Below, piece by piece: positions 1,199-54,600 of a DNA stretch of 64,000 bases. Position 1 is the first letter of the stretch, and the number at the start of each line of letters is the position of its first letter. Both the position numbers and the translations under genes were made by a program. Origin of the DNA: Acidobacteriota bacterium (GTDB lineage Bacteria > Acidobacteriota > Blastocatellia > Pyrinomonadales > Pyrinomonadaceae); NCBI GenBank assembly GCA_032159235.1, contig JAVHWW010000075.1, positions 3,717 through 67,716 on the forward strand, given 5' to 3'. A model generated the notes under the pieces. That model searched no databases. It worked only from the letters and a program-made list of their open reading frames with translations, and was not told the DNA's origin.

Positions 1199-1981
1199 GT
1201 GACAGCAACGATGATCTTCCCGATAGGCGATGACAACTCCGACCGCACGAGCGCGCCCATCATCAACTATCTGCTCATTGCGATCAATATCGTGGTCTTC
1301 GTCTGGCTGCAACAGGCCGGTGCGAATGACAAGTTCACCTACGCTTACTCGACCGTTCCCGAAGAGATTAGAACCGGGCGCGATGTGACCGAGCGCGACA
1401 TCCCAAACAATTATGCGATGCAAGACCCGCAAAGCGGCGAGCGCCGTACACTTCCACTTCAGCCGACGCCGGGTTCAGTTTACCTCACGCTGCTGACTTC
1501 CATGTTCATGCACGGAAGCTGGATGCATCTGCTGGGCAACATGCTCTTTTTGTGGATATTCGGTGACAATGTCGAGAACGCTTTGGGACGCATCAGGTAT
1601 TTAATCTTCTACCTCTTGACGGGCTTGATTGCATCGCTCGCACAGGTCTTTACGACGTTTGCGTTCAACGGCAATCCGTTCATTCCGAGTCTCGGCGCTT
1701 CGGGCGCGATCTCCGGCGTGCTCGGCGGTTACCTGCTTTTGTTTCCGCGCAATCAGGTGCGCGTGATTCTGTTCAGGTTCCTGACCAGCGTTCCGGCCAT
1801 CGTCGCCATCGGTCTCTGGTTCGTGTTGCAGTTAGTCAGCGCGTTCGGCGTCATCGGTGCTGGCCCACAATCGGGCGGCGGCGTGGCATTCATGGCGCAC
1901 GTCGGCGGCTTCATCGCCGGACTCGTGCTCGTCAAAATCTTCGCCATCGGGCGCACGCCCACTGTGGCGAGACCTTATTAA
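1199..1981 (+). CDS. Rhomboid family intramembrane serine protease
   Basis: HLLGNMLFLWIFG and GASGAISGVLG (GxSG) motifs plus a downstream AHVGGF His. Multi-TM. Start is GTG 1199 or ATG 1211. Confidence 0.85.
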   Translation: MTATMIFPIGDDNSDRTSAPIINYLLIAINIVVFVWLQQAGANDKFTYAYSTVPEEIRTGRDVTERDIPNNYAMQDPQSGERRTLPLQPTPGSVYLTLLTSMFMHGSWMHLLGNMLFLWIFGDNVENALGRIRYLIFYLLTGLIASLAQVFTTFAFNGNPFIPSLGASGAISGVLGGYLLLFPRNQVRVILFRFLTSVPAIVAIGLWFVLQLVSAFGVIGAGPQSGGGVAFMAHVGGFIAGLVLVKIFAIGRTPTVARPY

Positions 1982-2053
1982 CTTTTCCCGCAACGTGTCT
2001 TCAACAGACGCTTGCGGCTTTGGCACTAAAATTCAAGCAAGGAGAAACAAGCA

Positions 2054-2512
2054 ATGGCTACGGATAACGACAAGACAGTCTCGACTCTCAACAACTTAAT
2101 CGAAACCTGCAAGGACGGCGAGAACGGATTCCGCACCGCCGCCGAAGGCATCAGGAAAGGTGAATTGAAGACGCTCTTCAACACCTACTCGCAGCAACGC
2201 GCGCAGTTTGCCGCCGAACTGCAAGCGGAAGTCCGTCATCTCGGCGGCGATCCTGAAAACTCTGGCAGCGTGGTCGCCACACTGCATCGCGGTTGGATCA
2301 ATCTCAAGTCAGCCGTCACGGGCAATGACGATGGCGCAATCATCAGCGAGTGTGAGCGCGGCGAGGATTCAGCCGTCAAAAATTATGAAGATGCTCTGAA
2401 GGAGAACCTGCCTGCCAACATTCGAGCAATCATCGAACAGCAGTTCACGCAGGTTAAGGAAGCGCACGATCAAGTCCGCGCGCTCGAAAGAGCCAGCAGC
2501 GCGAAAGCGTAA
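2054..2512 (+). CDS. PA2169/DUF2383-type ferritin-like four-helix protein
   Basis: 152 aa. The N-terminal LNNLIETCKDGENGFRTAAEG pattern is typical of the DUF2383 family. AAGGAGA lies upstream of the ATG. Confidence 0.7.
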   Translation: MATDNDKTVSTLNNLIETCKDGENGFRTAAEGIRKGELKTLFNTYSQQRAQFAAELQAEVRHLGGDPENSGSVVATLHRGWINLKSAVTGNDDGAIISECERGEDSAVKNYEDALKENLPANIRAIIEQQFTQVKEAHDQVRALERASSAKA

Positions 2513-2517
2513 AAGAA

Positions 2518-2623
2518 GAGACGCGGAGAGTGGGAGACGCGGCGACGCGGCGAGAAAGAAGAGTTGCTGTTGAGACCTCTCTTCTCTTTTCGCCGCGTCG
2601 CCGCGTCGCCGTGTCCCCGCGTC
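2518..2623. repeat. Family D palindromic element (8-nt units GAGACGCG/GGCGACGC)
   Basis: Left arm 2518-2563, loop 2564-2576, right arm 2577-2623. Inner GAAAGAAGAG/CTCTTCTCTTT extension. Starts 6 nt after the stop at 2512. Confidence 0.85.
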
Positions 2624-2689
2624 GCTTTTGCCTTTCCGCACGCCGCTCCTGTAAGATCACCCGTCAACCAAGCTGTAGGAGTTTTATCC

Positions 2690-3112
2690 GTGTCAACGAC
2701 TGAAACCATTCTTCCTCCCGCCAATCAACAGGGTCTCGACATCCGCTCGACGCCACGCGCTGAGATGAATCTTTACCCGCTCGACACTTTCCAGTATGAA
2801 TTCGTCGGGCGCGAAATTAGTATCAACTTTGAGATACCGGAATTCACGGCCATCTGTCCGTTCTCGGATTTCCCGGACTTCGCCATCATCCGTCTCGAGT
2901 ATGTCCCGAACGAACGCTGCATCGAACTCAAGAGCCTGAAACTCTACATCAACTCATTTCGTGAGGTGAAAATTTTCCACGAGCACGTCATCAACATCAT
3001 CCTCGAAGACTTCGTTGCCGCCTGCGATCCCTTGCGCGTGGAGATTGAAGGCGACTTCCACATTCGCGGAAACATTAAGACTATTGTCAGAGCGAGATAC
3101 GAAAAACAGTAG
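2690..3112 (+). CDS. queF: NADPH-dependent 7-cyano-7-deazaguanine reductase (type I QueF)
   Basis: [14 protein letters not shown] catalytic-Cys region and the ELKSLKLY QueF motif. GTG 2690 is preceded by AGGAG (2677-2681). The longer ORF from 2564 reads through the family D hairpin and is rejected. Confidence 0.85.
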
Positions 3113-3138
3113 TCAGTGGTCGGTGGTCGGTGGTCAGT
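3113..3138. repeat. Family A left arm (GTGGTCR 7-mers), split element
   Basis: TCAGTGGTCGGTGGTCGGTGGTCAGT directly after the queF TAG (3110-3112). Complementary to 3548-3578, 410 nt downstream. Confidence 0.8.
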
Positions 3139-3159
3139 TAAACGAAGGAGTATCGGCTG

Positions 3160-3552
3160 ATGCCACTTAAAAGTTACGGCGAGTTGATTGCTTGGCAGAA
3201 GGCTATGGATTTGGTGCAAAGTGTTTATGAAGCGGTCAGGGCTTTTCCGAAAGAGGAGATTTATGGATTAACGAGCCAGTTGAAGCGGGCTGCGGTTTCC
3301 GTGCCATCGAACATTGCCGAAGGGCAAGGGCGCAAGTCCACTCGTGAATTTCTACATCATTTATCTATCGCCTATGGCTCACTCATGGAAGTGGAAACAC
3401 AAATACTCATCGCAGTCAGGCTTGACTATTTGAGTCAACAAGATGCCGAACGGATTATTGAACGAACATCGGAAGTCGGTCGGCTCATCAACGGCTTATC
3501 GAATGCTCTGGCTAATAAACAAACTGAAGCTGCCACAGCACTGAACAACTGA
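3160..3552 (+). CDS. Four-helix-bundle protein (23S rRNA intervening-sequence protein / Avd family)
   Basis: AWQKAMDLV...LKRAAVSVPSNIAEGQGR...EFLHHLSIAYGSLMEVETQ is the family signature. GAAGGAG at 3144-3150. The TGA stop lies inside the right arm of the family A repeat. Confidence 0.85.
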   Translation: MPLKSYGELIAWQKAMDLVQSVYEAVRAFPKEEIYGLTSQLKRAAVSVPSNIAEGQGRKSTREFLHHLSIAYGSLMEVETQILIAVRLDYLSQQDAERIIERTSEVGRLINGLSNALANKQTEAATALNN

Positions 3553-3578
3553 CCACCGACCACTGACCACTGACCACT
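3548..3578. repeat. Family A right arm (TGACCAC 7-mers), split element
   Basis: ACTGACCACCGACCACTGACCACTGACCACT, reverse complement of 3113-3138. Followed 4 nt later by the ATG at 3583. Confidence 0.8.
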
Positions 3579-3582
3579 ACTT

Positions 3583-3807
3583 ATGACTTTTGCACTTTCA
3601 TCAATCGGCGGAATCATTGCGGCACTGGTGCTGTTCATCATCCTGAAGCGCGTCATCGGCATAGTTTTCCGCATCATTCTGGCGGGAGTCTTGCTGTTAG
3701 CGATTGTGATAGGTGGTTGGTGGTGGTCGAGGTCTGGTAATTCCTCGACCGCTAACGACAATAATGCTCATCCGCAGCAAACGCAGCCCGCGAAGAAGAA
3801 ACGCTAA
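3583..3807 (+). CDS. Small two-TM membrane protein, hypothetical
   Basis: 74 aa with two hydrophobic helices and a basic C-tail. No recognisable family. Confidence 0.45.
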   Translation: MTFALSSIGGIIAALVLFIILKRVIGIVFRIILAGVLLLAIVIGGWWWSRSGNSSTANDNNAHPQQTQPAKKKR

Positions 3808-3825
3808 TCAGTTCATCTCTTAAAC

Positions 3826-5139
3826 ATGGCGGAAACAGATACCGACGCTGCCGACCAGTTTGATGCTGCGAGCAACGGGCAGAAACTTGACGAGGGCACG
3901 CCGGGACTCTGGCGGCGTTATCGGCGTCTTCCGAAAAATGTCTTCGTCATCGGTTTCATCAGTCTGCTCAACGATGCGTCGAGCGAGATCATCTATCCTC
4001 TGCTGCCGCTTTTCTTGACCGGCGCGCTTGGTGCTTCGCCGAGAGCCATCGGTGTGATTGAAGGCGCGGCGGAATCCGTCTCAAGTCTGCTCAAACTCTT
4101 CGCCGGATATTTCTCTGACAAGCGCGGACGGCGTAAAGGGATGGTCGTCTTCGGCTATGCGCTGGCGAATACGGTTCGCCCACTTATTGGCTTTGCGACG
4201 AGTTGGTATCAGGTACTTGCCATCCGCTTGACGGATCGCGTCGGTAAAGGCGTCCGCACAGCGCCGCGTGATGCGATGATCGCGGACGGAGTGTCTGTCA
4301 AAGAGCGCGGATTGGCCTTCGGGTTTCATCGTGCGATGGATCACGCGGGCGCTGTCATCGGGCCGCTCATCGGCTTTCTGTTGATCCAATTAATTGCGCA
4401 AGATAGAAACAATGCAACGCTTGGCGATTACAGAAAAGTCTTCCTCCTGGCTTCCATTCCTGCACTTGCCGCTGTCCTCGTCGCTGTCGTGGGTTTGCGT
4501 GAATCTGCGACGAAGCGCGGGGCTGATGAATTAACTCCGCCGCGCCTGAGTCTTCGCGGTTTCGATGGAAACTTCAAACGATTTCTGATTCTCGTTGCGC
4601 TTTTCACCTTATCGAACTCAACCGACGCTTTTCTGATTCTTCGTGCTAAACAGGCCGGAATTCCCGATAGTAATATCCTCTTACTGTGGGCCGCACTGCA
4701 CGGAGTTAAAGTTCTCAGTTCACTCATTGGCGGAGATTTGTCTGATCGGCTGGGTCGCAAGACTTTGATCGTTTCCGGCTGGCTGCTGTACGCAGCCGTT
4801 TATTTAGGCTTCGCTTTCGTCTCAACGAACGGCATGGCGTGGATACTCTTTCTCATCTACGGCGTCTATTTCGGCCTGGCTGAAGGAACAGAGAAGGCGC
4901 TCGTCGCAGACCTCGTGCGGCCAGAGCAGCGCGGGACGGCTTACGGGATGTATAATCTGGCTTTCGGCATTACTGTGCTTCCCGCTTCGCTGTTGATGGG
5001 CATTCTCTGGGACTGGCGCGGCCCGCAGACGGCGTTCATCGTGAGCGCGGCCATCGGCGCGCTTGCTGCGTTGCTGTTACTTTTGCTTGTCAGTACGCGG
5101 GCACACTCAAGCGGCGAGCAACTTCAAGCCGGACACTGA
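3826..5139 (+). CDS. MFS transporter
   Basis: 437 aa, about 12 TM. GYFSDKRGRRKG and DRLGRK loop motifs typical of MFS. Confidence 0.85.
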   Translation: MAETDTDAADQFDAASNGQKLDEGTPGLWRRYRRLPKNVFVIGFISLLNDASSEIIYPLLPLFLTGALGASPRAIGVIEGAAESVSSLLKLFAGYFSDKRGRRKGMVVFGYALANTVRPLIGFATSWYQVLAIRLTDRVGKGVRTAPRDAMIADGVSVKERGLAFGFHRAMDHAGAVIGPLIGFLLIQLIAQDRNNATLGDYRKVFLLASIPALAAVLVAVVGLRESATKRGADELTPPRLSLRGFDGNFKRFLILVALFTLSNSTDAFLILRAKQAGIPDSNILLLWAALHGVKVLSSLIGGDLSDRLGRKTLIVSGWLLYAAVYLGFAFVSTNGMAWILFLIYGVYFGLAEGTEKALVADLVRPEQRGTAYGMYNLAFGITVLPASLLMGILWDWRGPQTAFIVSAAIGALAALLLLLLVSTRAHSSGEQLQAGH

Positions 5140-5199
5140 CGGAAGCAGCGTTTCGTTGCTTGATAAAAGAGAGCTGATTGAAGTTCGGAGAGAAATAAC

Positions 5200-5508
5200 T
5201 TGAGCCTTAACGTCGAACGCTGGGACGGAAGTGAGATGCCTGAAGCGCACGTTTTACGCAAGCGCATGGAGGCTGAAGGTTACAGTGTCTTCGAGTCGCG
5301 GGACGCGGCGGGCACGTCTTACGGCCCGCACAGCCACGCCGAAGATCAATCGCACTGGATCGTGAGCGGTGCGCTCACTCTGCGCGTCGGCTGGGAGGAA
5401 TACACCTTGCGCGCGGGCGACCGTGATTATCTTCCGGCCAACACGGAACATTCCGCAGTCGTGCACGGCAACGAACCCGTCATCTATCTGATCGGCATAA
5501 AATATTGA
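5200..5508 (+). CDS. Cupin domain protein
   Basis: 102 aa. HSHAEDQSHWIVSG...P-x-x-x-EHSAV is a cupin two-motif pattern. TTG start with GGAGAG upstream. Confidence 0.7.
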   Translation: MSLNVERWDGSEMPEAHVLRKRMEAEGYSVFESRDAAGTSYGPHSHAEDQSHWIVSGALTLRVGWEEYTLRAGDRDYLPANTEHSAVVHGNEPVIYLIGIKY

Positions 5509-10570: not shown

Positions 10571-10649
10571 GACTGTTCAAAAGTTCCTTTGATGATTTGG
10601 ATGTCGGGTGTGGATATTGACCCGCTCACAGGACGGTGTCAAGGAGAAG

Positions 10650-10728
10650 CAGTGGTTAGTAGTCAGTGGTCAGTGGGCAGTAAAAACAGCTTTTCAACTG
10701 ACCACTGACCACTGACCACTGACCACTG
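10650..10728 (-). repeat. Family A palindromic element (core in minus orientation)
   Basis: Left arm 10650-10681 (degenerate GTGGTYA units), loop AAAAACAGCTTTTCAA 10682-10697, right arm 10698-10728 (4x CTGACCA). Confidence 0.85.
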
Positions 10729-10737
10729 CATTAGTTG

Positions 10738-12180: not shown

Positions 12181-12251
12181 AGTGGTCAGTGGTCAGTGGT
12201 CAGTTGAAAAGCTGAACCAACTGACCACTGACCACTGACCACTGACCACTG
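12181..12251 (+). repeat. Family A palindromic element (core in plus orientation)
   Basis: Left arm 12181-12204 starts at the nt after the TAA (12178-12180). Loop TGAAAAGCTGAACCAA 12205-12220. Right arm 12221-12251. ATG at 12256. Confidence 0.9.
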
Positions 12252-23737: not shown

Positions 23738-24970
23738 ATTTTCACAGGAAAATCCATCATCTGCTTTGCCGGTGAAGATTGGTGGTATCACCATCCGCAC
23801 TCGAAGAACCACTTGATGCGCAGGTTTGCGCGTGCAGGCAATAAGGTCATCTTCGTCAATTCGATTTCGATGGGTTTGGCTTCTGTCACGAACAAGGACT
23901 TGCTTCCGCGCGTGGCGAGAAAGTTGAAATCTTACGCGAAGCTGGCGCGCACGACGGAAGAAGGCATCACTGTAGTCTCACCTGCCGCGTTGCCTTTCTT
24001 CGGGAGTCGCGCCTCGCGTGCAGCTAATCGTCATCTACTGAGCGCGCAGGTCGGGGCGCTGGCGCGCAGTCGTGGACTCAGGAATCCTATCTTGTGGATT
24101 GCTATTCCGACAGCCGTTGAGATGATCGGACGGCTTCATGAGCAGTTGGTCGTTTACCAAGTCTCGGATAAGTACGACGCGAACACGATGGATCACGCGA
24201 CCGACCCAAAGACGATTCGCATCCTGCACGAACGCGCGTTAGATTCCGCCGACATCATCTTATATTCGGGACGCAAACTTCTGGCGGAAGCGACCAATGG
24301 GCGCGAGCGTTCATTTCTTTTGGAGCAAGCGGTTGATTTCGAGCACTGGGCGCGTGTAGGAAGCGGAGAGCTTGAAGTTGCGGAAGAAGTCGCACAGATT
24401 CCACGTCCGCGCATCGGCTACTTCGGCGCGATTGAACCCTGGCTCGTGGATCAGGAGTTAATCAAGCGGGCCTCGCGCGAACGTCCTCTCTGGCATTGGG
24501 TCTTCATCGGCAATCGCTCGCGCGGGCTTGAGATTGAAAATTTGCCGAACGTGCATTTTATTCCGCCCGTGAAATACGATGAGCTGCCACGCTACGCCGC
24601 AGGCTTCGACGTCTGCGTGCTGCCGTGGGAGACTGAGCAGACGTTCACCTCTTACGGCTCGGCTATCAAGGTGCGAGAATATCTGGCGACCGGCAAGCCC
24701 GTCGTCATCGCGCCGCTCCCCGAATATGAGCCGATGGCGGATGTGCTACGCATCGCTCGCAGCCGCGATGACTTTCTCAGGTTGGTTGAGGATGCGCTTG
24801 ACGAACAGGGAACTGAGCAGGCGCTCGCTCGCCAGGCCGCAGTGAGAGGTGGAACATGGGACGCGCGCGCAGAATGGGTCAGTAATTTAATTGAAGAAGC
24901 ACTGAAGAAAAAGTGGTCAGTGGTCAGTGGTCAGTGGTCAGTTGAAAAGACTGAACCGACTGACCACTGA
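23738..24970 (+). CDS. GT-B glycosyltransferase; probable non-canonical ATT start
   Basis: The first ATG (23813) truncates the conserved N-terminus. In-frame upstream codons read FTGKSIICFAGEDWWYHHPHSKNHL after TAG 23711-13. ATT 23738 sits 7 nt after GGAGA (23726-30). The C-terminal 19 codons are read from the family A repeat. Confidence 0.7.
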   Translation: MFTGKSIICFAGEDWWYHHPHSKNHLMRRFARAGNKVIFVNSISMGLASVTNKDLLPRVARKLKSYAKLARTTEEGITVVSPAALPFFGSRASRAANRHLLSAQVGALARSRGLRNPILWIAIPTAVEMIGRLHEQLVVYQVSDKYDANTMDHATDPKTIRILHERALDSADIILYSGRKLLAEATNGRERSFLLEQAVDFEHWARVGSGELEVAEEVAQIPRPRIGYFGAIEPWLVDQELIKRASRERPLWHWVFIGNRSRGLEIENLPNVHFIPPVKYDELPRYAAGFDVCVLPWETEQTFTSYGSAIKVREYLATGKPVVIAPLPEYEPMADVLRIARSRDDFLRLVEDALDEQGTEQALARQAAVRGGTWDARAEWVSNLIEEALKKKWSVVSGQWSVEKTEPTDH

Positions 24971-24989
24971 CCACTGACCACTGACCACT
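24912..24989 (+). repeat. Family A palindromic element (core in plus orientation)
   Basis: Left arm 24912-24942, loop TGAAAAGACTGAACCGA 24943-24959, right arm 24960-24989. Contains the GT stop (24968-70). ATG of the next gene at 24994. Confidence 0.9.
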
Positions 24990-24993
24990 TTGT

Positions 24994-47068: not shown

Positions 47069-47159
47069 AGTGGTCAGTGGTCAGTGGTCAGTGGTCAGTG
47101 GTCAGTGGTCAGTCGGTTCAGCTTTTCAACTGACCACTGACCACCGACCACTGACCACT
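47069..47159 (-). repeat. Family A palindromic element (core in minus orientation)
   Basis: Left arm 47069-47113 (6 units), loop CGGTTCAGCTTTTCAA 47114-47129, right arm 47130-47159. Fills the whole gap between the permease stop (47159-61) and the ATPase start (47062). Confidence 0.9.
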
Positions 47160-49533: not shown

Positions 49534-50118
49534 TCAACGAACGATGCGCTGCCGCTCGACGACGAGTTGCTGCAAAACTTCATTAACAACTTCTCCGGCA
49601 ATGCCATCCAGACGAAAATCCCGCTCCGCGACACCATCCCAGAACTCGTCAAGCCCACGCACGCCCGCGCGCTCAAAGGAGAGCGTCTGCACGAGCAAAT
49701 CAATCACGTCCGCAGCCTTGACGAGCCGCGCTTCCAAGCTCTCACGCTCCTCGTAATCTTCATGCAGCGCGCTATATTTTTCAGCAATAGCGCTCGTTTC
49801 AAGCCTGCTCACGATCTCCTTAAAAGCCGCGCTCTCAGCGCCTTTTCTCGTCTCTGCGCCGAAATACTCCGTCGCCGTGCGCGGTAAATCGCCAACGCGA
49901 ACCTCCGCCCAATCGTGCAGGAGCGCGGTTCTCAAAACGCACTCCATGTTGACTTCGACGCCGCGCGCAATCAACTCATCGCCTAACAACATCGCCGCCA
50001 CCGCCACACCATACGAATGATCCGCCACAGACTCCGCACCCGCCGCGATGCCGCGCAGCATCCAGCCCGTGCGCCCCAATCCCTTCAAACGCTGTAACTC
50101 GATCAGTGTGGAAAGCAT
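49534..50118 (-). CDS. HD-domain phosphohydrolase (YfbR-like 5'-nucleotidase family)
   Basis: ESVADHSYGVA and LLHDWAEVRVGDLP metal-binding H..HD..D motifs. 194 aa. Confidence 0.8.
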   Translation of the reverse strand: MLSTLIELQRLKGLGRTGWMLRGIAAGAESVADHSYGVAVAAMLLGDELIARGVEVNMECVLRTALLHDWAEVRVGDLPRTATEYFGAETRKGAESAAFKEIVSRLETSAIAEKYSALHEDYEERESLEARLVKAADVIDLLVQTLSFERAGVRGLDEFWDGVAERDFRLDGIAGEVVNEVLQQLVVERQRIVR

Positions 50119-50120
50119 AT

Positions 50121-50170
50121 CAGTGGTCAGTGGTCAGTCGGTTCAGCTTCTCAACTGACCACTGACCACT
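50121..50170 (-). repeat. Family A palindromic element, short (core in minus orientation)
   Basis: Left arm 50121-50138, loop CGGTTCAGCTTCTCAA 50139-50154, right arm 50155-50170. Fills the gap between the stop at 50173 and the start at 50118. Confidence 0.85.
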
Positions 50171-50172
50171 AC

Positions 50173-54516: not shown

Positions 54517-54600
54517 GGTCAGTGGTCAGTGGTCGGTGGTCAGTGGTCAGATGGCGACGAGTGGTTTTCACTGACCACTGACCACTGACTACCGACCACT
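54517..54600. repeat. Family A palindromic element with divergent loop
   Basis: Left arm 54517-54550, loop ATGGCGACGAGTGGTTTTCA 54551-54570, right arm 54571-54600. Confidence 0.85.

Follow-up and report, generated by a model that had tools for sequence, protein, structure and literature searches.

The window, that is, the whole 64-kb stretch of DNA that was analysed, is part of a Pyrinomonadaceae (Acidobacteriota) metagenome contig of 121,980 bp (JGI 3300044833 Ga0467068_0000066), has a G+C content of 56%, and carries a small gene enclosed by two complementary arrays of tandem heptamers (Table 1). We refer to the two arms, and everything between them, as the cassette. It is set between queF, which encodes preQ1 synthase, and a gene for a small membrane protein, as follows. 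The queF stop codon, TAG (3110–3112), is within the first unit of the left arm, and the stop codon of the enclosed gene, TGA (3550–3552), is inside the right arm. The ATG of the membrane protein gene (3583) is found 4 nt past the right arm and is not preceded by a Shine-Dalgarno sequence of its own. The order then continues with genes for an MFS transporter, a cupin, and PolA. The called genes within 3 kb on either side of the cassette encode NAD kinase, a rhomboid protein, a DUF2383 protein, QueF, and the MFS, cupin, and PolA proteins.

Each arm is a tandem array of period 7, with AGTGGTC/GGTGGTC as its units. In an inverted-repeat search, the two arms are 32 nt each, with 94% complementarity and a separation of 407 nt, close to the ~410 nt given in a preliminary description of this DNA that was made from the sequence alone. 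As that description also had it, exactly one gene lies between them, with its own Shine-Dalgarno sequence (GAAGGAG, from 3144) and with its stop codon in the right arm. The minimum-free-energy fold predicted for the RNA of bp 3095–3595 has a 31-bp closing stem formed by the two arms (z = −5.5). A promoter scan of bp 1900–5300 returned no promoter-like sites, and no terminator was found at the arms in the same interval. Direct repeats in bp 2800–3900 are limited to short, weak ones of no more than 20 nt. The family HMM found no second PF05635 gene within the 64-kb window, and an Rfam scan of the whole window gave no matches, rRNA included. The preliminary description had allowed that the arms might belong to two independent half-elements; no nearby partner was found for either arm.

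Table 1. Features of the cassette locus and the empty family A hairpins of the window.
Feature	Coordinates (bp)	Strand	Basis or remarks
queF (preQ1 synthase), upstream host gene	2690–3112	+	PF14489, E 2e-32; TIGR03139, E 1.6e-39; JGI gene call
Left arm	3108–3139	+	AGTAGTC AGTGGTC GGTGGTC GGTGGTC AGTT; inverted repeat, period-7 array
Leader, 20 nt, with Shine-Dalgarno GAAGGAG (3144–3150)	3140–3159	+	sequence
PF05635/TIGR02436 four-helix-bundle gene, 130 aa, loop cargo	3160–3552	+	profile matches; JGI gene call
Right arm	3547–3578	+	AACT GACCACC GACCACT GACCACT GACCACT; inverted repeat, period-7 array
Downstream host gene, 74-aa membrane protein	3583–3807	+	gene call
Empty family A hairpin	10649–10729	.	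degenerate left arm
Empty family A hairpin	12181–12251	.	loop TGAAAAGCTGAACCA; fills the gap of two co-directional genes
Empty family A hairpin	24910–24991	.	2 nt 5′ of the next start codon
Empty family A hairpin	47069–47159	.	loop in opposite orientation
Empty family A hairpin	50118–50172	.	short arms; loop in opposite orientation
Empty family A hairpin	54517–54600	.	different 19-nt loop

The product of the enclosed gene matches PF05635 (E 4e-40; 136.8 bits against a cut-off of 33.8) and TIGR02436 (E 2.4e-38; 130.7 bits against a cut-off of 24), so the four-helix-bundle (23S-IVS) identity first assigned to it stands. The AlphaFold model has four helices (pLDDT 92.5). The best fold match is 2GSC, the XCC0516 protein, with a TM score of 0.80–0.90 and 48% identity (sequence E 2.4e-27). 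The next structural matches are 2RLD and then two structures of Avd, one of the protein by itself (4DWL) and one of the DGR ribonucleoprotein (8UB7), the TM scores to these two being 0.73–0.76. Both 2GSC and 2RLD are stand-alone pentamers; the cassette protein was modelled as a single chain. Residues R43, S47, N51, and E54 are invariant in 25 homologues, and the motif (G)xxRxxxSxxxNxxE, noted earlier for these proteins (PMC3936711), is present here with Q40 at the position of the leading G.

Beyond PF05635 and bAvd, the only other profile match is a weak one to CPDase, with no HUH/Y1 transposase, and profile searches of the cassette protein found no nuclease, recombinase, or polymerase domain. 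The protein has no match in PADLOC, and tblastn against phage genomes gave none. Since the phage, PADLOC, and Rfam searches were all without a match, the element is not a known phage, defence, or RNA family. A DGR reading was rejected: the protein falls below the cut-offs of the Avd equivalog NF033474 (36.4 bits against 80) and of bAvd PF22296 (38.5 against 40), and there is no reverse transcriptase among the neighbours within 3 kb on either side.

The repeat family of the arms, family A, is the commonest heptamer family in the window. There are 28 matches to an 18-nt family A pattern, where shuffled sequence would give 0.01. Six family A copies are empty hairpins, with loops of 15–20 nt, the range given for them in the preliminary description. 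The loop TGAAAAGCTGAACCR, in either orientation, is common to five of the six, and it follows that these empty hairpins are copies of one another. Altogether the window has about 21 hairpins, about one per 3 kb, with at least seven unit families (AGGGATG, TTTTGAA, CAGAATC/CAGGAGT, AGTGATA, the octamers GAGACGCG and AAGGTTAA, and family A). On a crude ORF map, these hairpins typically span the gap of two co-directional genes, from 0–6 nt after a stop codon to 0–6 nt before a start codon. When the window genes beside empty hairpins were compared with the neighbours of cassettes elsewhere, the only matches were weak and probably non-orthologous ones between ABC-ATPases.

The queF Site and Other Copies in Related Genomes

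Close strains, with QueF proteins 93% identical to that of the window, have the cassette at the same site (loci L082–L084). In more distant relatives (L088–L094, L183, and L184), the order queF, small membrane protein gene, MFS, cupin, polA is found without the cassette, and the segment between the first two genes is of several kinds. In L089–L091, the space from the queF stop codon to the ATG is taken up exactly by an empty family A hairpin (TCAGTGGCCGGTGGTCAGTGGTCAGT / TGAAAAACTGTTCCGA / ACTGACCACTGACC...), with a loop of 16 nt. In L088 and L183 there is a hairpin of another heptamer, the left arm of which is translated as the C-terminus of QueF, and L092–L094 have a third hairpin type. L184 has a degenerate hairpin with the loop TAAAAGCAAAAGGCCAACA (TAAAAGCAAAAGG-CCAACA). 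Where L089–L091 have an intercistronic family A hairpin after queF, the window has the segment 3108–3578, exactly in its place. The preliminary description had placed the gene where the loop of a family A palindrome should be, and had suggested a search for empty sites in relatives; L089–L091 provide such sites, and the placement is exact to the base.

The loops of the empty hairpins may hold traces of the cassette. The loop of L184 is similar to a junction of the leader's first 8 nt (TAAAAGCA in L087) with the tail of the cassette (CCAAAACA in L083), and it includes a possible relic of a Shine-Dalgarno sequence. Likewise, the common loop of the empty copies resembles the leader start TAAAAGC joined to the window cassette's tail, CTGAACA; a leader start of the form TAAA(C/A)G is kept in L001 and L083–L087. 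The loops look like fused cassette ends, a resemblance that extends over just 7–8 nt on each side and is suggestive only. Whatever the origin of the empty-copy loops, the gene is precisely in the hairpin loop.

A second conserved site, site B, is located between a gene for a 260-aa protein and a GDT1 gene, followed by a Usp gene (L001, L085–L087). The proteins of the site B copies are 83–88% identical to the window protein. L001 has no synteny with the window, and in the alignment of the two, similarity is bounded by the outer ends of the arms, with CAGTAGTCAGTGGTC as its start on the left. The similarity covers the leader and also the idiosyncratic order of the unit variants. Arms and gene are inherited together. 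Several genomes have further copies upstream of fabF, and several have them in front of a gene with a product that begins MAILTIRDALNQ.

Between the window and the site B copies, dN/dS is 0.07, with dS saturated (>1.3), and the cassette protein is under strong purifying selection. Given that saturation at synonymous sites, movement between the two Pyrinomonadaceae sites is not frequent.

The window cassette and those of L082–L084 have 98.5% nucleotide identity, with zero differences in bp 3211–3533, against 88–92% for queF and 93% for the membrane protein gene; the DUF2383 gene, compared with L082, has 94.6%. The dS values between the window and L082 are 0.053 for the cassette, 0.28 for queF, 0.14 for DUF2383, and 0.18 for the membrane protein gene. 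The block of high identity stops at the arms. The window copy appears to be younger than the flanking genes, the alternatives for its low dS being constraint at synonymous sites and consensus effects of metagenome assembly. The pattern fits a recent replacement or conversion of cargo via the arms. No recombinase or transposase was found in or beside the cassette unit, and no target-site duplication was seen by inspection of the flanks of the cassette, the six empty copies, L001, and L085–L089.

Arms around Related Genes in Other Bacteria

The preliminary description had proposed asking whether other members of the gene family are flanked by inverted short-unit arms. For 80 loci of a GTDB species-representative set, the score was the best complementary match between the two flanks of the gene, with a threshold of at least 15. 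Of the 80 loci, 62 reached it; none of 40 other ORFs and none of 240 length-matched random intervals did. These loci span Acidobacteriota, Planctomycetota, Chloroflexota, Chlorobium, Desulfobaccales, Synergistaceae, Spirochaetaceae, Victivallales, and others. An independent JGI metagenome set behaved the same way (57/73 loci, against 0/175 controls). With the sets pooled and a slightly looser score, a spanning stem is present in 133 of 150 usable loci and in none of the control intervals. The pooled stems have a median length of 32 nt (IQR 26–36, maximum 198), 89% complementarity, and an arm separation of 425 nt; the distance from left arm to start codon is 37 nt. The arm-gene-arm architecture surrounds most relatives of the cassette gene in many phyla.

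Across 113 other loci, just 7 of the 226 arms have a separate partner close by. This result, together with the lack of arm partners in the window, led us to reject the reading of the arms as two independent hairpins. The heptamer differs between loci, and the two arms within each locus stay complementary. For the clade of the window gene, the units have the consensus RGTNGNC; positions 2–3 are GT in 119 of 129 arrays, and variation within arrays is concentrated at positions 1, 5, and 6. More distant homologues on cyanobacterial and Azospirillum plasmids (31–48% identity) have arms of other heptamers in all eight cases (GGGAGTA, GGTGACA, GGGTGTA, CAGGAGT, AAAAGCT, GGAGATA, GGGAAAA, and GGACAGA).

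A blind scan for complementary heptamer arrays 150–2500 nt apart covered 790 kb of loci preselected as PF05635 holders. It returned 89 pairs around known PF05635 genes and one unexpected pair, in L034, where arms of GCGGATT are found between fabH and fabD. The 118-aa ORF that they enclose is a divergent PF05635 member (E 2.7e-15). In the scanned sequence, from loci chosen for PF05635, gene-sized heptamer inverted repeats held PF05635 genes only.

Some cassette positions are long-stable, namely site B, acpP-fabF, and the position upstream of the gene beginning MAILTIRDALNQ. Other contexts are scattered, including the inside of cas operons, the interval between RNR genes, and the inside of a methyltransferase ORF. 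Relatives at 60–74% identity are distributed patchily across phyla.

The orientation of neighbours bears on expression. The gene and its upstream neighbour point the same way in 124 of 140 loci; for other adjacent gene pairs of these loci, the figure is 184 of 307 (p = 3e-10). The orientation of the downstream neighbour is at baseline. A motif like a Shine-Dalgarno sequence precedes 53 of 81 starts. From their sequence and setting, the cassettes appear to be promoterless and dependent on read-through. Mismatches in 69 stems, read on the sense strand, comprise 82 G·U and 71 A·C (p = 0.42). Since G·U is not in excess over A·C, the stems give no sign that selection acts on the sense RNA as opposed to the DNA.

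Known Systems with Similar Elements

The closest parallel is provided by the intervening sequences (IVSs) of 23S rRNA. The IVS of Coxiella has an S23p ORF, a gene of the same family, and a 28-bp stem with tandem GACAGAT, in three to four units that vary in number between strains (PMC4990558). The heptamers precede the S23p ORF, and the first of them is where RNase III cleaves (PMC4990558). The analogy with 23S IVSs drawn in the preliminary description is an apt one. There, the stem is kept while the ORF decays, and the ORF is probably untranslated; a proposal of 1993 held that the IVS ORF serves mobility (both in PMC4990558). Like the 23S IVSs of Leptospira, Coxiella burnetii, and Haemophilus sp., the cassette has a sense PF05635 (S23p) ORF in the loop and a terminal stem of ~28–32 bp, in keeping with the roughly 20 bp or more expected of such a stem. 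The elements also share a unit size of ~430–470 nt, heptamers in the stem, and, apparently, the lack of a promoter and membership in the host transcript. The differences are as follows. A 23S IVS is inserted in a helix of 23S rRNA, whereas the cassette is flanked by queF and the gene for a small membrane protein, in an operon of protein-coding genes. In contrast to that of Coxiella, the cassette ORF is intact, has a strong Shine-Dalgarno sequence, and is under purifying selection. Unlike in 23S IVSs, both arms consist entirely of heptamer arrays, and an empty hairpin from the same repeat family can be present at the site instead.

Heptamer arrays are known from several bacteria. They are intergenic, with about four units of 7 nt, often form convergent stem-loop pairs, and are often located just 5′ of start codons (PMC4692102, PMC4679880, PMC2700814). 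Such arrays, often in inverted pairs, make the STRR of cyanobacteria, the GGGAATC arrays of Xanthomonas, the TAACTGA arrays of Beggiatoaceae, and the Geobacter sites resemble the arms studied here. In Xanthomonas there are 186 GGGAATC arrays, of which 70 are in inverted pairs (PMC4692102), and one array is between bccP and XCC0516, overlapping the XCC0516 start (supplement of PMC4692102). No link to PF05635 was made for the Beggiatoaceae arrays or for the paired hepta- and octanucleotide sites of Geobacter, and in the supplement of the Geobacter genome paper a link of the paired sites to S23p genes was not found. The arrays have been treated as G-quadruplexes, regulator sites, or slippage products, and none was tied to PF05635 (PMC4692102, PMC4679880, PMC2700814). 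In the searchable literature, which does not extend to subscription journals, we found no statement of a general association of PF05635 with heptamer arrays.

REP/REPIN-RAYT systems offer another comparison. As in these, short palindromes are dispersed intergenically, often between cistrons, and one gene is flanked by inverted copies of the dispersed repeat, here the family A of the arms and of the six empty hairpins in the window. However, the cassette protein is a four-helix bundle and not an HUH/Y1 transposase; its arms are tandem 7-nt arrays, whereas REP is a fixed palindrome of 20–40 nt; and there are many heptamer families per genome. The empty family A hairpins are also MITE-like: they share arms and a conserved loop, are found in both orientations, and resemble the cassette minus its interior. 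Unlike MITEs, they have no visible target-site duplication, and the full-length element encodes no transposase. Avd, finally, has the same fold as the cassette protein and distant sequence similarity to it. Avd acts on structured RNA. Unlike Avd in DGRs, the cassette has neither a reverse transcriptase nor a template or variable repeat in its neighbourhood.

Interpretation of the Cassette

The reading that we prefer, and judge to be probably correct, is that the cassette is a PF05635 gene that lacks a promoter, brings a ribosome-binding site, and is carried in the loop of a heptamer stem, and that it is the mRNA-operon counterpart of the ORF-bearing 23S IVSs. The gene would be transcribed by read-through from the upstream host gene. 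In the transcript, the arms would pair to form a duplex of ~30 bp, and the repeated units, with the many pairing registers that they allow, would help to close the 400-nt loop. By analogy with the 23S IVSs, RNase III may cut this duplex and leave a translatable monocistronic RNA. The hairpin loop would be a safe harbour, since the stem, and any role that it has for the operon, would survive the insertion. We propose that cargo may spread or be replaced through recombination between arms of one heptamer family, and that loss of the ORF would leave an empty hairpin, with the fused cassette ends as its loop. Of the two roles suggested for the palindromes in the preliminary description, that of carriers or insertion sites for these genes is supported by the results above.

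The other suggestion, that the protein acts on the hairpins, leads to a possibility that we offer tentatively and that is compatible with the reading of the cassette as a loop-borne passenger. Protein and repeats would be partners, as in REP/RAYT, with the PF05635 pentamer as a trans-acting factor that binds, protects, processes, or mobilises heptamer hairpins. The gene with its cognate flanking repeats would be the autonomous master copy, and the empty hairpins would be non-autonomous derivatives. It is in favour of a partnership that the cassette is flanked by just the commonest heptamer family of the window, the one with six empty, MITE-like copies and a conserved loop; yet at least six other hairpin families share the 64 kb, which holds no second PF05635 gene. 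In X. campestris, similarly, the dominant heptamer GGGAATC, with its 186 arrays, is the one beside the PF05635 gene XCC0516. The cargo appears to be specific, PF05635 being alone in the gene-sized heptamer inverted repeats scanned. The protein itself points in both directions: it has invariant polar residues (R43, S47, N51, and E54), strong purifying selection, and a fold relative, Avd, that is part of an RNA-binding reverse-transcriptase complex (8UB7), but no nuclease, recombinase, or polymerase domain. The persistence of the Coxiella stem while its ORF decays (PMC4990558) also counts against a partnership.

A wider form of this proposal is one that we consider doubtful, namely, that PF05635 and heptamer hairpins are a widespread and unrecognised two-part system. 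The pentamer would recognise the 7-nt units of its own stem and would maintain or mobilise the hairpin family, possibly via an RNA intermediate, as for Avd. The gene-bearing unit would be autonomous, and the empty hairpins, such as the STRR-like ones and the GGGAATC pairs of Xanthomonas, and the ORF-bearing rRNA IVSs would be derivatives or insertions.

It is improbable that the gene is an ordinary host gene, immobile and unrelated to the empty hairpins, for which the arrays would be a cis-regulatory or stabilising stem of its own mRNA. Purifying selection and the long-stable positions (site B, acpP-fabF, and upstream of the MAILTIRDALNQ gene) are what such a gene would show, but its presence or absence at an orthologous site, with an empty hairpin of the same family in its place, is not. 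The apparent youth of the cassette relative to its flanks also argues against an ordinary host gene, as do the scattered, unrelated contexts (cas operons, RNR genes, and a methyltransferase ORF) and the patchy distribution across phyla of relatives 60–74% identical.

A chance arrangement, either the halves of two degenerate hairpins or an Avd stranded from a decayed DGR, is very improbable: a hairpin about every 3 kb and a weak match to Avd models speak for it, against which stand arms without local partners (here, and in all but 7 of the 226 elsewhere in 113 loci), 0 of 455 controls at the threshold, an Avd model score of 36 bits for a cut-off of 80, and neighbours (queF, a small membrane protein, an MFS transporter) that include no reverse transcriptase.

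The cassette joins three puzzles in one structure, as follows: the ORF-bearing 23S IVSs, the role of the very large PF05635 family, and the excess of heptanucleotide repeats in bacteria. The joined structure is found from Acidobacteriota to Cyanobacteria, Planctomycetota, Chloroflexota, and Proteobacteria. On the reading that we prefer, PF05635 genes would be found inside cas operons, rRNA genes, and fatty-acid operons because they are passengers in hairpin loops and not functional partners of their neighbours. This bears on annotation by guilt of association, an example being 23S_rRNA_IVP, reported as CRISPR-linked; genes of this name are on record both within cas loci and within insertions in the rRNA of CPR bacteria.

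Cassettes within genes and operons

The cassette of the window, a PF05635 four-helix-bundle gene (3160-3552) between complementary heptamer arms, is 98.5% identical to its counterparts in three close strains that carry it between queF and the downstream gene, against 88-95% for the flanking genes. Not a single difference is found across 3211-3533, and the arms bound this conserved block.

Elsewhere, PF05635 cassettes lie inside a protein-coding gene. In Chlorobium sp. KB01, one Victivallales MAG and one Chloroflexi MAG, the surrounding open frame is 1300-1570 aa long and matches Eco57I/MmeI/N6 methyltransferases, like the PglX of BREX; two of the three frames, those of L051 and L077, hold two cassettes apiece. 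Relative to the cassette gene, the surrounding frame is +2; it runs without a stop across both the arms and the gene, where it encodes some 150 aa of S/G-rich insert. Among the 80 PF05635 loci from GTDB species representatives, an alternative frame is open across the cassette in only seven, and it is +2 in every case.

Two cassettes may also share an operon. A Pyrinomonadaceae fatty-acid operon (L034) contains a pair from divergent PF05635 subfamilies that differ in their arms, which are GCGGATT for the cassette in the fabH-fabD gap and of the AGTGGTC type for the cassette preceding fabF. Homologues on four cyanobacterial plasmids lie between cas6 and cas4, between cmr2 and cmr3 and between both ribonucleotide reductase subunit genes, and heptamer arms are present at each. 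Given these positions, all with arms, the CRISPR association reported for the PF05635 family may be hitch-hiking in operons.

Positions of cassettes, homologues and hairpins
Locus	Positions	Feature
L051	2130-6350	PF05635 cassettes in methyltransferase-like open frame
L077	3-3959	PF05635 cassettes in methyltransferase-like open frame
L079	1671-6389	PF05635 cassette in methyltransferase-like open frame
L034	1335-1760; 3001-3414	Two PF05635 cassettes in a single operon
L096, L099, L100, L095		PF05635 homologues on plasmids of Anabaena sp. 90, Pseudanabaena galeata, Picosynechococcus PCC 7003 and Nostoc edaphicum
L088	2920-2953	Left arm of queF-site hairpin within queF frame
L183	1914-1953	Left arm of queF-site hairpin within queF frame
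L092	2918-2950	Left arm of queF-site hairpin within queF frame
Window	2516-2627	Octamer-unit hairpin, GAGACGCG-type arms, 30-nt loop, upstream of queF

Arms, units and translation

The left arm of the family A hairpins, (AGTGGTC)n, is stop-free in every forward frame, and the right arm, (ACTGACC)n, both at window 3547-3578 and in every family A copy, needs no more than three units to place a TGA in each of these frames. It follows that an upstream ORF may enter the stem, and that translation leaving the loop would be halted. In three relatives with other hairpins at the queF site, the left arm falls within the queF frame; QueF is then 150 rather than 140 aa long, and a heptamer array is thus translated as its C-terminal tail.

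Across 129 arrays (the arms of the 80 loci and of the window), position 1 alternates between A and G from unit to unit (CAGT/CGGT) far more often than positions 2 and 3 vary, with 54 deviations against 1 and 15, respectively. The same alternation recurs in unrelated heptamer families.

Hairpins across the window

Hairpins crowd this genome: between 857 and 55934, the window contains about 21, with arms made up of 7- or 8-nt units repeated in tandem and drawn from at least seven unit families. Most take up the whole gap between co-directional genes, and a start codon follows 0-6 nt past them without a Shine-Dalgarno sequence. This density, the gap-filling position and the character of the next start suggest an intercistronic element, present genome-wide, that serves in processing or insulation. 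The octamer hairpin lies 3 nt past the DUF2383 stop; its intergenic stretch is only 67% identical to that of the close strain L082, against 92-95% for the genes on both sides.
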